This document shows, piece after piece, positions 9,516-31,371 of a DNA stretch of 39,253 nucleotides. This DNA comes from Eledone cirrhosa (Eukaryota): contig CAXHJY010000393.1 in NCBI GenBank assembly GCA_964016885.1, positions 1 to 39,253 on the forward strand. Reading direction: 5' to 3'. The number at the start of each line of letters is the position of its first letter. Within the stretch, counting starts at the first letter, position 1. The notes beneath the pieces are model-generated. The model worked only from the letters and a program-made list of their open reading frames with translations. It was not told the origin of the DNA and did not search any database. The translations under genes were made by a program, and so were the position numbers.

Positions 9516-10094
9516 CTTAATGTAAAAATGTAAACAAATGAATATATATATATATATAACTTAATGTAAAAATGTAAACAAATGAATATATATATAACTT
9601 AATGAATATAGAAATAATTATGAATAGGCAAAGTCGAAAATATGAACAACTGTGCCACAAAACCGATAAATTGATTTGAAAAATCTATTGAAGGCATTGA
9701 AGAGATTGCATATAGTTTGACAGTTCCGGACTCTAGATAAAGGTTTATTGTAAAAAGTGTAGGAATTAGGAGTATTATGATAGGAATAATTAAATGAAAA
9801 TAAATATATGAATATATATGTACATATATGTATATGTATATATATGTATATGTATATATGTATATATATATATATATGTATATGTATATATATATATATG
9901 TATATGTATATATATGTATATGGTTATATATATATATATATATATCTCCCCTTTCCGCTTGATGGCAGTGTGAGATTTCTCATTGAGACTGCTGGAATTT
10001 CAAATTTGGCGGTCATTCTAGCACGGAGGGGTACCATCGCTGAACATTAATATCGGTAAGGTTTTTTTTTTTTTATATTGATATTTGTCGGGCA

Positions 10095-10216
10095 TCCACT
10101 GATGATTTATAAGTGCCCACCTACATATATTCCTACGGACTATGTGTAGGCTTCTACATAACCTGGACATTATTTTCCCAATTTGTAGAAAACTTATAAT
10201 GAAACGATCGTTTGGA
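10095..10216 (+). ncRNA. Type I hammerhead ribozyme with long branched stem II
   Basis: Stem I UCCA/UGGA; CUGAUGA 10099-10105; stem II UUAUAAGU/ACUUAUAA; GAAA 10201-10204; palindromic stem III ACGAUCGU; GUU triplet (H17 at 10212). Confidence 0.8.
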
Positions 10217-10424
10217 AAGTGAGATGTATTTTAATTATGTCTCATATAAAATAATACAACTGGCTATCCGCAAAATACGTATAGTTAGCACCCCAAACCT
10301 ATAATTGGGATTATACTAAGGTATATCCTCATGTTTGTTGAGTGAGACGGAAGCCGGTCGGAGTATTGCTTAAAGCTTTCTCTGTTAATGTATTAAATAT
10401 ATATATATATATATATATATAAAG

Positions 10425-10504
<80 letters not shown>

Positions 10505-10837
10505 TATATATATATATATGTATATGTATATATGTACATGTGTATAGAAATATATGTTTATGTATATGTATATATATATGTATATGTATATATATGTATA
10601 TATATATGTATATGTACATATGTATATGTATATATGTATATTTATATGTATATATATATGTATATGTATGTTTATATATATATATGTATGTATATGTATG
10701 TATACGTGTATATATGAATATGTATATATATATATATGAATATGTATATATATATATATGAATATGTACATATATATATGAATATATATATATGAATATG
10801 TACATATATATATGAATATATATATATGTATATGTAC

Positions 10838-10869
<32 letters not shown>

Positions 10870-10971
10870 GTATGTATATGTACGTATATGTATATTTATA
10901 TATATATACACGCATACATACACACACAGCAACAAAGCAAGGGCAAGAAACTTAGTAGTAATAGTAATAAA

Positions 10972-11122
10972 AATGAATTCTAATTTTAGGCAGAAGGCCA
11001 GCAATTTTTTTTTTTGGTGGGGAGGAGGAAAATCGATTACGTCGGTCCCAGTATTTGACTGGTACTTAACTTTATCTACCTCCACAAAGCGGGATTTGAA
11101 TTCAGAACGTAGAAAGTGGTAA
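10972..11122 (-). mobile_element. Diverged SINE family A
   Basis: aaggccagcaattt...gactggtactt...gcgggatttgaattcagaacgta. Confidence 0.8.
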
Positions 11123-11387
11123 CGAAAGATGTTAATAAAAAGAAAAGATCATGGTGACGACGGCGAAGAAGAAAGACGATAAAACAGGAAGAAGAAGGAG
11201 GAGGAGAAGAAGGAAGATTATGATTTTGAATGTAAAGAAAAAAGAAAGATTATGGCGTCGTATAAGAAGATAGATGGTGAAGCATGAAGAAGCAGAAAAA
11301 ATATGGAGAAGAAAGAAAGTTGGTGAAGTAAGAAGAAGAATAAAAAATATGGAGATGAAAGAAAGATGGTGAAGTATGAAGAAGAAG

Positions 11388-11860
11388 AAATGTAAAGAAA
11401 AAGAACGATTATGGCGATGAAGAAGAAGAAGAAGAAAGACGATGAAGCATGAAAAAGAAGGAAGATTATGATGGAGAAATGTAAAGAAAAAGAAATTATG
11501 GCGATGAAGAAGAAGAAGAAGAAGAAAGACGATGAAGCATGAAAAAGAAGGAAGATTATGATGGAGAAATGTAAAGAAAAAGAACGATTATGGCGATGAA
11601 GAAGAAGAAGAAGAAAGACGATGAAGCATGAAAAAGAAGGAAGATTATGATGGAGAAATGTAAAGAAAAAGAACGATTATGGCGATGAAGAAGAAGAAGA
11701 AGAAAGACGATGAAGCATGAAAAAGAAGGAAGATTATGATGGAGAAATGTAAAGAAAAAGAACGATTATGGCGATGAAGAAGAAGAAGAAGAAAGACGAT
11801 GAAGCATGAAAAAGAAGGAAGATTATGATGGAGAAATGTAAAGAAAAAGAAACATCATGG
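11388..11860. repeat. 89-bp purine-rich minisatellite, about 5.3 near-identical copies
   Basis: aaatgtaaag recurs at 11388, 11477, 11567, 11656, 11745, 11834; degenerate units from about 11130. Confidence 0.95.
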
Positions 11861-12078
11861 CGACGAAGAAAACGGAAGATGATAGCGAAGAAGAATGACG
11901 ACGGAGAAGAAGAAGGGGGTAGAAGAAGGAGGAAGAAGGAGAACACTGAAGAAGGAAATCAAACGCGATATCCCTTAAATCCGCCTCTTAAATCTCACTG
12001 TAATGTGTAATGGCAATTAACAGATGTCAGGATAACATGGAATATAATAGAGGACATTATGAAAAGAAAACAAGAACA

Positions 12079-12134
<56 letters not shown>

Positions 12135-12139
12135 TTACG

Positions 12140-12223
<84 letters not shown>

Positions 12224-12301
12224 TACGCACACACACACACACACACATATATATACATATATAATATATATATATATATACTTACGCACATATACGTACA
12301 T

Positions 12302-12344
<43 letters not shown>

Positions 12345-12377
12345 CATATATAATATATATACTTACGCACATATACA

Positions 12378-12422
<45 letters not shown>

Positions 12423-12693
12423 GGTGGCTGCCAACTCGTTTTCGAGTACGGCCACTACTTTATATCCATGTAGGAGAACCCCTACCGATGCGCTGAACGA
12501 GTGTGACTTTTTAGTCCAGCCAGCGACTTGAAAACTCTGGTACAAACACTACACTTGTGACAATTACTGACACATAGTGCTGGGCCCATGGTACCATGTG
12601 ACGACAAGTGCAGAGAGATCTCCAGATATAAAGCAATGCCTGTGCCGTGAAGCTTTTATAGTGAGCAAAGGCACTGCACAAAGCCAGTCCCAC
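12423..12693 (-). mobile_element. Family X RTE-derived element, copy 2 (5'-truncated)
   Basis: Reverse complement of 15539-15807; flanked by (TA)n and CA/TA repeats. Confidence 0.9.
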
Positions 12694-28714: not shown

Positions 28715-28854
28715 TGTATATATATATATATTAATGTATATATATATATATATATATATATTGTATATATATATATTAATGTATATATATATATGTATAT
28801 ATATATTGTATATATATATATATATTAATGTATATATATATATATATATTAATG

Positions 28855-28889
<35 letters not shown>

Positions 28890-29524
28890 TGTATATATAT
28901 ATATATTAATGTATATATATATATATGTATATATATATTGTATATATGTATATATATATGTATATATTTATATATATATATTTTGTATATATGTATATAT
29001 ATATATGTATATATTTATATATATATATTGTGTATATATATATATTAATATATGTATATATTTATATATATATATTGTGTATATATATATTAATATATGT
29101 ATATATTTATATATATATATTGTGTATATATATATTAATGTATGTATATATGTATATATATATATTGTGTATATATATATATATATATTAATGTATATAT
29201 ATATGTATATATATATTGTATATACACAGTTCAAGAGTAACCAATCTTAAAGAGAGAGATGTAGATAGGAGAGGTGAGATTGGTGAATTAGTTAGAAGCC
29301 AAAGCGTAAAGACATGTGCTCAATGTGCAATATGCAGTGGAAAGCAGCTTGGTGGCTGGGTTCATGCAGAGGTTAGGTGCACAGAGCTGGAAATATTCAT
29401 TAGTTAAGCAAAACAAGACCACAAATTTCACAAGGAAGACATTATTAAAAGATTGTCAACATATTTTAGTTTGATGTAAGGAATGTAGAGAATAATAATA
29501 ATAATATTAATAATAATAATGTCC

Positions 29525-29643
29525 GTTTACAATCGTTTCGCTACTCCATATAATGTTTGTGGATCAAATGATTATATATCATTATTGATCTGGTTCAGTT
29601 GAAAATAATTAACATAGGTAAATATAGAGCAGCTCATCGGAAC
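29525..29643 (-). ncRNA. Type I hammerhead with long branched stem II, core mutated at U4
   Basis: Minus strand: stem I GUU/AAC; CCGAUGA; 12-bp stem II GCUGCUCUAUAU/AUAUGGAGUAGC; GAAA; quasi-palindrome ACGAUUGU; GUA triplet. Confidence 0.7.
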
Positions 29644-29771
29644 TTCAAAAGGAATATAAATTAAAATAAATTAAAATAAATTAAAATAAATTAAAATAAA
29701 TAAAAATTTTGAAGTTCGGATGAGCTGCTCTATATTTGTGTGGTCTTGTTTTGCTTCAATAATGAATATAT

Positions 29772-29847
<76 letters not shown>

Positions 29848-30190
29848 ATATATATATATATATATATATATTGTATATATATATATATATTGTATATATA
29901 TATATATATTGTATATATATATATATATTGTATATATATATATATATATATTGTATATATATATATATATTGTATATATATATATATATATATTGTATAT
30001 ATATATATATATATTGTATATATATATATATATATTGTATATATATATATATATATTGTATATATATATATATATTGTATATATATATTGTGTATATATA
30101 TATATATCGTGTATATATATATATATATTGTATATATAAATTGTATATATATATATATTAATGTATATATATGTATATATATATATATTA

Positions 30191-30225
<35 letters not shown>

Positions 30226-30240
30226 TGTATATATATATAT

Positions 30241-30430
30241 AGGGCGTTGGATTGGCAGTATCGGTAGAGGGTCGGAAGCCATGCTTTCCACCATAGTTGC
30301 GTGCCTTTACTATCTGAGTTCAAATCCCGCCGAGGTTGACTTTGCCTTTCATCCTTACGGGGTCGATAAAATAAAGTACCAGTAATGCACTGGGTAATTG
30401 CTCGCCTTGTGCCTAACGTAGAAACAATTA
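30241..30430 (+). mobile_element. Full-length tRNA-derived SINE family A
   Basis: A box TGGCAGTATCGG 30253-30264, B box GTTCAAATCC 30318-30327, body gcctttcatccttacggggtcgataaaataaagtacc, tail gaaacaatta. Confidence 0.93.
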
Positions 30431-30860
30431 ATGTATATATATATATATATTAATGTATATATATATATATATATTAATGTATATATATATATATTAATGT
30501 ATATATATATATATTAATGTATATATATATTAATGTATATATATATATATTAATGTATATATATATTAATGTATATATATATTAATGTATATATATATAT
30601 ATTAATGTATATATATATATATTAATGTATATATATATATTAATGTATATATATATTAATGTATATATATATTAATGTATATATATATATATTAATGTAT
30701 ATATATATTAATGTATATATATATTAATGTATATATATATATATATATATATTAATGTATATATATATATATTAATGTAAATATATATATATCTATATAT
30801 TAATGTAAATATAGATATATATATATATTAATGTATATATATATATATATATATATATTA

Positions 30861-30899
<39 letters not shown>

Positions 30900-30940
30900 T
30901 GTATATATATATATTATAATATATATATATATATATATTA

Positions 30941-30997
<57 letters not shown>

Positions 30998-31010
30998 TGT
31001 ATATATATAT

Positions 31011-31043
<33 letters not shown>

Positions 31044-31083
31044 TAATGTATATATATATATATATATTAATGTATATATATAT

Positions 31084-31116
<33 letters not shown>

Positions 31117-31371
31117 TAATGTATATATATATATATATATATTAATGTATATATATAATATGTATATATATGTGTGTGTGTTATCGGAGTCCGGAAGCTT
31201 ATCCTGTGCAACCACACTACTTTACTCTTTACTCTACATATGTATACATATACACATCTGTGTCTGTGTGTGTATGTGTGTGTGTATGTGTGACAACTGA
31301 CTGACTGATGAACGAGTGTAAAACACTGGATAGTGTATCAGTGGGAATTATCCACCTATCCACCTATCTAC

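Follow-up and report, generated by a model that had tools for sequence, protein, structure and literature searches.

The closest described relatives of the DNA analysed here are the non-LTR retrozymes of animals, which are non-coding, head-to-tail elements with a type I hammerhead in consecutive units (accessible text of PMC7229834 and 10.64898/2026.07.22.740005), and the Penelope-like elements (PLEs), whose pLTRs carry minimal hammerheads with a short helix I, a long helix II and a palindromic helix III, mostly as solo motifs from truncated elements (accessible text of PMC4209133). Minimal motifs are also accepted for retrozymes (10.64898/2026.07.22.740005, accessible text). A CxCX5C linker is diagnostic of the Hydra clade of EN+ PLEs, a (TA)n inserter, and non-autonomous Chlamys such as MRC1 are non-coding and head-to-tail, with 3'-end likeness to an autonomous PLE (PMC8557442, accessible text). 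In the accessible parts of prior reports, minimal PLE hammerheads had low activity in vitro and the driver of animal retrozymes was not demonstrated; one reconstituted PLE, from the anole, gave no reads ending at the cut (PMC11167929). An octopus repeat annotation lists PLE families, and its accessible text makes no mention of ribozymes (PMC13282606). A search of the literature on PLEs, hammerheads, retrozymes and octopus or cephalopod repeats, with many journals, supplements and Repbase outside its scope, found neither the family called R below nor a 5'-end pile-up like that of R.

The window, that is the whole 39,253-nt stretch of Eledone cirrhosa DNA analysed here (contig CAXHJY010000393.1), holds several short islands. 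With a probability of about 0.8, we regard these islands as independent (TA)n insertions, comprising five 5'-truncated, often 5'-inverted 3' ends of coding PLE families (A to E) and a fragment of a non-coding tandem element, R, that was likely copied in trans by a Hydra-type enzyme. The features were as follows:

9946-10396, + strand: family R fragment, 5'-truncated (monomer positions 273-723), between (TA)n tracts
10095-10216, + strand: minimal type I hammerhead motif of R, core CTGATGA at 10099-10105, GAAA at 10201
18457-18511, - strand: 5' inverted arm of family C, core CTGAGGA at 18511, 5' strand of stem I missing
18513-18799, + strand: LINE-like 3' fragment inserted in the family C copy, supplying a false core at 18786
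18800-18942, + strand: 3' end of family C, core CCGAGGA at 18810, GAAA at 18828, ending in (TA)n
23772-24096, - strand: 3' end of family D (older), core TTGATGA at 23986-23980, GAAA at 23962
24992-28007, + strand: family A, a 5'-truncated EN+ Penelope-like element, open frame 24999-27482
27706-27742, + strand: hammerhead motif of family A, core CTGACGA at 27708, GAAA at 27732
29225-29669, - strand: 3' end of family B, core CCGATGA at 29640-29634, long stem II, GAAA at 29539
29701-29770, + strand: 5' inverted arm of family B, starting 168 nt short of the long 3' end
33447-33620, + strand: short truncated, inverted 3' end of family E, hairpin-shaped, with an 80-nt tail and the GAAA half only

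The window was scanned with a hammerhead descriptor specifying a stem II of at least 4 bp, a loop of up to 130 nt, a palindromic stem III and a stem I of at least 2 bp. Strict-core sites numbered two, 10099(+) and 27708(+); block shuffles averaged 0.03, and none of them (0/200) reached two. When one core change was tolerated there were six sites, compared with 0.65 in shuffles (0/200). The sites gained were 29640(-), 23986(-), 14629 and 32722, the last two of which look like chance. Rfam returned no hammerhead for island 9946-10396 (two chance matches) and none among the 150 matches listed of 531 for the window, where microsatellite miRNA matches swamped the output; a repeat search of the window returned microsatellites alone. 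With its 77-nt loop II, the R motif is of a kind that short-spacer descriptors, and Rfam here, miss.

A sequence-only reading of this DNA had reported five hammerheads in about 20 kb, an observation that was confirmed in part. Intact cores were found for two of them, the motifs placed at 10095(+) and 27706(+). Those placed at 29525(-) and 23953(-) are genuine, but the core of the former actually lies at 29640-29634 and is mutant (U4C), and the window copy of the latter is mutant as well (C3 changed). The fifth, at 18781(+), was a chimera misread as a single motif: the stop codon of a LINE-like ORF fragment (18481-18789) falls within the CTGATGA at 18786, and the true motif of family C has its core at 18810. 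The LINE-like fragment is flanked by an 11-bp target duplication, GGATCCTCAGC (18502-18512 and 18800-18810); it had no Pfam match, and we provisionally label it RTE. Three weaker motifs had also been listed. The one at 23533 was rejected, folding no better than shuffles (z +1.0) and lying outside a nearby repeat, as was that at 31300, which lacks GAAA and gave microsatellite matches only. At 33480 the GAAA half was present but the rest of the motif was absent, the copy being truncated and hairpin-shaped.

Family A carries RT together with a C-terminal GIY-YIG domain in one ORF, with the motifs DKSG, YVDD and GIY-YIG (YIGET). The RVT_1 match (E 2e-4) was below the Pfam cut-off, and Atlas neighbours at 0.97 carried HTH_animal plus GIY-YIG. 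Its CX4CxxC linker (CTNRKCIIC at aa 694) agrees with the CX2-5CxxC of Neptune/Nematis-type EN+ PLEs, which it also resembles in the C-terminal GIY-YIG and the 3'-end hammerhead, a likeness at the level of motifs; it differs in that the window copy is missing the N-terminus, which continues in another copy. The family had 192 candidate copies, and its hammerhead was conserved in the 30 loci examined. It lies in the 3' repeat and has an extra U, a 6-bp stem II and a stem I of just 2 bp. The family further shows 5' truncation, inversions, a tail and two 3' ends separated by about 50 nt.

The islands at 18800, 23953, 29525 and 33480 are not independent non-coding elements. Because longer copies run into GIY-YIG ORFs, these four are 5'-truncated or inverted ends of coding Penelope-like families, a known kind. 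Upstream GIY-YIG ORFs were seen in five long copies of family B, two of C, two of D and two of E, and in three long copies of a further family, F. Exact pattern matches numbered 962 for B, 2223 for C, 11,506 for E and 24,881 for F, each with no match in reversed controls, and there were 4068 candidates for D. Inverted 5' arms were present in 28/60 copies of B and in 37/58 truncated copies of C. Hydra-clade motifs occurred in the families of three of the four ORF-linked islands, an assignment made by motif, with no full-length intact ORF among the fetched loci of B to F: the CxCX5C linker was present in B, C and F (for E the region is outside the fetched loci), and in B, C, E and F the endonuclease has CxxC and CxH motifs around its conserved E and N. 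Like the Hydra-clade elements of PMC8557442 (accessible text), they combine (TA)n insertion, inverted 5' arms and tails; unlike them, they have longer tails (about 73-168 nt, against 30-40 nt), lack canonical cores in B, E and F, and reach 1,000-25,000 matches here.

Core sequences differed among families. Most copies of D read CTGATGA where the window copy reads TTGATGA, and family C has CTGAGGA, mostly CTGANGA, against CCGAGGA in the window. CCGATGA (U4C) is the usual state of B, CAGAAGA (U4A) was found in 23/23 matched copies of F, and E showed TTGAGAA, CTGAGAA or TTGATAA. Compared with the pLTR hammerheads in the accessible text of PMC4209133, the motifs here share the helix proportions and the mostly solo occurrence, and the U3-A8 core variant described there was found in E. 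They depart from that description in the long loop II of R, B and E, in the U.U that replaces G10.1-C11.1 in R, C and F, and in the fixed core changes of the abundant coding families B and F.

The earlier interpretation of the islands was supported in part. As proposed, they sit in (TA)n-type repeats, carry partial 5' inverted copies (at 18457-18511 and 29701-29770) and come from several unrelated, Penelope-related families favouring (TA)n; far from being single-copy, each belongs to its own high-copy family. A retrozyme-like nature held for 9946-10396 only, the others being truncated ends of coding families, and the idea of one local system gave way to independent insertions in a TA-rich genome. 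Each of families B to E was presumably moved by its own enzyme, and what lies beyond R is ordinary PLE debris.

Island 9946-10396 is a fragment of R, a retrozyme-type element whose 723-742-bp non-coding unit is repeated head to tail; its 3' end forms a precise boundary with (TA)n. A first look gave 3444 candidates, exact core matches numbered 731, and 39 other copies among the 40 scored were 96-98% identical. There were 280 exact head-to-tail junctions, and 26 of the first 100 listed lay in a long array with unit variants on C2. Hammerheads recurred in consecutive units (loci L021 and L207/208), and five pairs among the first 100 matches listed had exact cores 719-742 bp apart. Protein-coding capacity was absent, the longest ATG ORF being 49 and 35 aa in two natural reference monomers. 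Dispersed copies had one common exact 3' end into (TA)n and variable 5' ends; in 30/30 copies picked by core, (TA)3 lay at most 20 nt from the 3' end.

The R motif has a 4-bp stem I, an 8-bp stem II with U.U at its base and, in the window, the stem III palindrome ACGATCGT; cleavage is predicted at 10212^10213. Its conservation was assessed in 105 copies picked by the sequence flanking the motif. CUGANGA was kept in 98/105, with N7 as the variable site, H17 was never G, and the GAAA columns were conserved at 0.998. Core conservation was 0.98, although the 3' flank was itself at 0.92; the core was better conserved than loop II, with changes at tolerated sites. Helix III was palindromic in 98/105 copies, as ACAATTGT (66 copies) or ACGATCGT (32 copies); since the 105 copies fall into few subfamilies, this switch counts as one compensatory event, not many. 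The base of stem II was U.U in 99/105 and G-C in four, which sets the R motif apart from the minimal type I pattern of a G10.1-C11.1 pair and an additional base following A9. An active axolotl motif is reported to have U.U at this position (PMC7229834, accessible text). In minimum-energy folds the R core was sequestered in another hairpin. A genome search for a short-loop version of the R motif led to no partner, the stretches matched at its two sites reading like R with a shortened loop.

R would accordingly be described, from its sequence, as an element with a unit over twice the usual retrozyme length and an unusually long-looped, well-conserved hammerhead motif. It agrees with the retrozymes of the accessible literature in being non-coding and head-to-tail, with type I hammerheads in consecutive units, in spanning monomers to long arrays, and in a length within the reported 51-972 bp. 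It differs from the 2020 definition (PMC7229834, accessible text) in its minimal PLE-type motif with the long loop II and without canonical loop-loop contacts. It further differs from accessible retrozyme descriptions in exceeding the usual unit of about 300 bp more than twofold, in that partial tandems, dispersed and truncated at the 5' side and with a precise 3' end in (TA)n, make up the majority of copies, and in a candidate driver suggested by a common end motif and not by whole-pLTR homology. The Chlamys element MRC1 shares its non-coding, head-to-tail build and 3'-end likeness to an autonomous PLE; it is algal, however, and its clade is reported, in the accessible text of PMC8557442, as mostly without canonical hammerheads.

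The end of R resembled the short 3' end of family F (about 80% over about 36 nt; 0/500 shuffles, both R subfamilies), a link that consists of a single short, AT-rich motif, noticed on visual inspection of flanks, with six families compared. Against family D, 1/500 shuffles reached the score for one R subfamily and 29/500 for the other. The PLE at 25-28 kb, which had been proposed to mobilise the island, was rejected as driver, the shared sequence being absent: its alignment to the R end motif was at shuffle level (459 and 110 of 500 shuffles reached the score). These comparisons point to a Hydra-type Penelope enzyme as the likely agent that copied R in trans. Extrapolating from published PLE biochemistry, the GIY-YIG domain would nick AT-rich DNA and reverse transcription would begin at fixed internal RNA sites, giving sharp 3' ends of short and long form, with tails of about 50-170 nt; early stops and strand switches would produce truncations and inverted arms. 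R itself may be transcribed as multimers, its hammerhead may act in dimeric form by way of the palindromic stem III, and the 36-nt end motif may recruit the enzyme of F.

It is improbable that R instead represents a coding PLE's pLTR or 3' UTR that was amplified in the form of tandem pLTRs, the ORF copies of this PLE being unsampled or extinct. Such ends are just what the other five islands are, and a derivation of retrozymes from pLTRs has been reported (10.64898/2026.07.22.740005, accessible text). However, the sequence upstream of monomer position 1 was, in the tabulated copies, another R end, a 250-bp internal R repeat or (TA)n, and in no case an ORF; R sequence preceded each of the four full-length upstream copies of the junction set (4/4), and the short-loop motif had no genome matches other than the two R-like ones. 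Ordinary satellite DNA spread by recombination, with the hammerhead a dead relic, would fit the long array on C2 and the sequestered core. We consider this very unlikely, as the combination of one precise 3' junction with (TA)n and differing 5' ends is the signature of target-primed reverse transcription, and the core is better conserved than loop II, its changes falling at tolerated sites.

The 5' ends of R copies piled up beside the predicted cut (18/90 and 14/74), most of the 32 lying 4-19 nt 3' of it. This pile-up is possibly a footprint of in vivo cleavage. We tentatively suggest, at less than even odds, that R may be a long-loop retrozyme hijacking a Hydra-clade PLE via the common initiation motif, with the pile-up a fossil record of minimal-hammerhead self-cleavage in vivo, where reverse transcriptase would have run off the cleaved 5' end. 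We lean somewhat towards an origin in a local hairpin, reverse transcriptase stalling or microhomology with (TA)n/(GA)n targets. A hairpin lies 8-31 nt 3' of the cut, the tract there, AGAGAGAT(A/G)TATTT, is like such targets, and most of the 32 ends fall within hairpin plus tract. Raw genome-wide junction counts were near flat (20 at the cut compared with 14, 16 and 8), which speaks for this origin. Family C had no pile-up at its own cut (5/64 at risk), its ends clustering 25-40 nt upstream (19/54), and in the anole PLE, besides the lack of reads ending at the cut, the ribozyme was dispensable in vitro (PMC11167929). An apparent cluster at -13 to -3 in family B counts for neither side, since it lies within an (ATT)n tract of the element that breaks alignments and into which other repeats insert. 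However, other TA/GA-like tracts in R drew far fewer ends (e.g., 0/45, 1/28, at most 3/19), the rate ratio at the cut was 3.1 (2.0-4.8) after AT-content and target-likeness covariates, and normalised junction counts were 2.35-fold higher there (bootstrap 1.2-4.2), all of which speaks against such an origin.

R bears on two questions, namely in vivo cleavage by minimal PLE hammerheads and the driver of animal retrozymes. For the second it gives a named candidate, family F, and a defined shared motif open to mutation. For the first, a 5'-end pile-up at the cut is a genome-only test applicable to any retrozyme family. If the cleavage reading is true, R would be a parasite that retains a perfect ribozyme, whereas the autonomous families most abundant here would have let theirs decay.

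The window, a complete contig of a 3.0-Gb animal genome, is dominated by (TA)n-type microsatellites. Searches against this genome resolved its islands into separate repeat families, and five of them are the ends of coding Penelope-like element (PLE) families, A to E. The sequence-only reading had taken the islands for mobile elements of several families, and they were indeed multi-copy, with 192-4068 candidates per family A-E.

27480-28007: family A; 192 candidates
29225-29770: family B; 2096 candidates, 962 exact end matches
18800-18942: family C; 929 candidates, 2223 exact matches
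23772-24096: family D; 4068 candidates
33447-33620: family E; 3099 candidates, 11,506 exact matches
9946-10396: 3' 451 bp of the 723-742-bp monomer of R, a non-coding head-to-tail repeat
Loci L556-L585, elsewhere in the genome: family F, a very abundant Hydra-type PLE

The sole long ORF in the finding (24999-27482) belongs to family A; its frame runs on upstream in copy L033, indicating that the window copy is 5'-truncated. The description of the islands as non-coding held for R, which had no ORF longer than 49 aa, and failed for B, C, D and E, whose long copies enter GIY-YIG coding sequence upstream. A CxCX5C linker was present in B and C, and CxxC/CxH endonuclease motifs in B, C and E; Craig et al. 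(PMC8557442) give both as marks of the Hydra clade, whose members insert in (TA)n. The anticipated 5'-inverted arms were observed in 37/58 truncated C copies and 28/60 B copies, each among the first 70 matches listed. Hammerhead cores departed from the consensus in B (U4C) and in E (U3-A8 or mismatch); in A, C and D they were mostly intact. Short and long 3' ends both existed in A-C and E, separated by ~50 nt in A, 73 in C, 80 in E and 168 in B; E had 14 short and 14 long ends (n=30). These paired ends correspond to the PLE 'tail', which published work gives as 30-40 bp (PMC8557442) and explains by two internal reverse-transcription start sites (PMC11167929). The families are of the same kind as published PLEs, with longer tails.

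A descriptor scan found two strict hammerheads in the window (10099+ and 27708+; shuffle mean 0.03, 0/200 reaching two). Allowing one core change gave six sites, including 29640- and 23986- (shuffle mean 0.65, 0/200 reaching six), so motif density exceeded that of shuffled sequence; two of the six are likely chance. The motif proposed at 18781 was rejected as a single hammerhead. It is a chimera. An 11-bp duplication brackets a LINE-like fragment whose stop codon lies within the CTGATGA at 18786, and the core of the host element is at 18810. The weak candidates at 23533 and 31300 had no fold or family support, and at 33480 one half of the motif was present and the other absent.

R was present both in 5'-truncated form and in partial tandems arranged head to tail. 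Exact matches numbered 731 for a core 22-mer, 805 for the end joined to (TA)n and 280 for the tandem junction; a single array on C2 supplied 26 of the first 100 junctions listed. The 3' end lay at (TA)n in 30/30 copies chosen by core, and subfamilies diverged by up to ~23%. The C2 array (312,267,783-312,296,981) is long, with spacings of ~746, 1000 and 1745 bp, and an internal duplication of 252 bp is present in part of its units. As a 2026 preprint (10.64898/2026.07.22.740005) defines the term, R qualifies as a non-LTR retrozyme; its own mark is a minimal-type, long-loop hammerhead motif.

Among 105 R copies picked by sequence outside the motif, CUGANGA was kept in 98, with N7 the varying site; H17 was U, A or C, and each stem I and stem II pair was held in 94-104. 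The stem III palindrome had two forms differing by a compensatory double change, which is a single event. Loop II measured 76-79 nt in 150/153 matches of an anchored search. Conservation by column was 0.98 in the core, 0.88 in loop II and 0.92 in the 3' flank. The predicted minimum-energy fold hides the core inside another hairpin, which counts against the motif.

Family F was found in the flanks, and its 38-mer had 24,881 exact matches. Long copies carry a Hydra-type endonuclease, the short 3' end (19/30) and the long one (11/30) are separated by ~90 nt, and the hammerhead core is degenerate and fixed (CAGAAGA). The R end and junction aligned to the F short end and first tail bases with ~80% identity over 36 nt, a score reached by 0/500 shuffles for both R subfamilies. 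The same test gave no alignment signal between the R end and A, B, C or E, and a borderline one for D (1/500 and 29/500 shuffles for the two subfamilies). The shared motif sits at the matching position in both elements, an arrangement resembling SINE-LINE pairs. Since this comparison was post hoc and on AT-rich sequence, we consider it likely, at most, that F is the driver of R through the common 3' end.

Cleavage of R was predicted at 10212^10213. We examined 5' ends in two sets. One comprised 74 dispersed junction loci, left after removal of 26 array rows from the first 100 listed; the other comprised 90 end-anchored copies, taken from the first 91 listed with an inverted partner skipped. 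Starts at -19..+2 nt of the cut were found for 14/74 upstream partial copies and 18/90 end-anchored copies, with rate ratios of 4.8 and 6.2; the site was predicted in advance, the excess was seen first in one set, and the exact bounds were fixed after both. The best window was matched by 0/300 constant-hazard simulations in each set, and the ratio was 3.1 (2.0-4.8) with AT-content and target-likeness covariates. None of these 32 starts had the upstream half of R within 0.8-1.4 kb, although bigger later insertions could conceal it. Genome-wide, (TA)3 within 3 nt of the given R position occurred at 20 distinct places for the cut, drawn from 26 rows; three control positions gave 14 places (from 16 rows), 16 (from 21) and 8 (from 8). 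These unnormalised counts were almost flat; normalised by sample match counts (71, 107, 148, 62), the ratio at the cut was 2.35 (bootstrap 1.2-4.2).

We put the probability that this pile-up is a footprint of in vivo cleavage at about one in three. A slightly better than even chance goes to an origin without cleavage, in a TA/GA-like tract, a hairpin or stalling. Most of the piled-up R ends lay 4-19 nt 3' of the cut, within such a tract, which also forms a hairpin, and stalling at structure would put ends at the same place. Family C showed no excess at its own cut (5/64 at risk); its ends bunched 25-40 nt upstream instead, which may reflect a start site, palindrome-driven inversion or stalling. 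For an anole PLE, PMC11167929 likewise reports no read ends at the cut. The family C cluster (loci L387-L456) sits at the motif's 5' border, takes in inversion points as well as 5' ends, and comprises 19/54 at risk. The family B 5'-end test gave no usable signal, with short-repeat insertions near the motif. In B (loci L457-L526), the (ATT)n tract directly 3' of the hammerhead is a recurrent insertion point for another short repeat, which mimics 5' truncation.

Other repeats were present in the window. A 29-bp tandem repeat (17800-18237 and 18390-18460) has its last ~70 nt repeated in inverted form across the (TA)n tract, directly adjoining the family C inverted arm; this inverted copy is possibly flank copied at insertion, or another family's end. 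A frameshifted LINE 3' fragment (31488-32612; zf-RVT match, E 3e-6) follows a (CTAT)n tract, and LINE-like C-terminal fragments at 20508-20930 (-) and 5042-5596 (-) had no Pfam matches. A ~185-bp dispersed repeat (23567-23770) had 1990 candidates at 78-85% identity. A short repeat, recognised from repeated peptides among window ORFs, recurs beside microsatellites (~5670-6010, 12420-12650, 15446-15750, 37720-37900). Tandem repeats of 89 bp (11386-11870) and 39 bp (14604-14981) were also observed.

Most likely, the GIY-YIG enzyme of each coding family would insert it by nicking AT-rich DNA; reverse transcription, primed internally, would then leave short 3' pieces, often with the hammerhead (steps after PMC11167929). 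R would be transcribed as multimers and processed by a dimeric hammerhead (after PMC4209133 and PMC7229834), and a Hydra-type enzyme would copy it. Most R copies span the cut, so the main template would have to be uncleaved or circular RNA. The finding is mostly known PLE biology, and R is one unreported retrozyme-type family. Through its long-loop hammerhead, its candidate driver and the distribution of its 5' ends, R makes two open questions testable.
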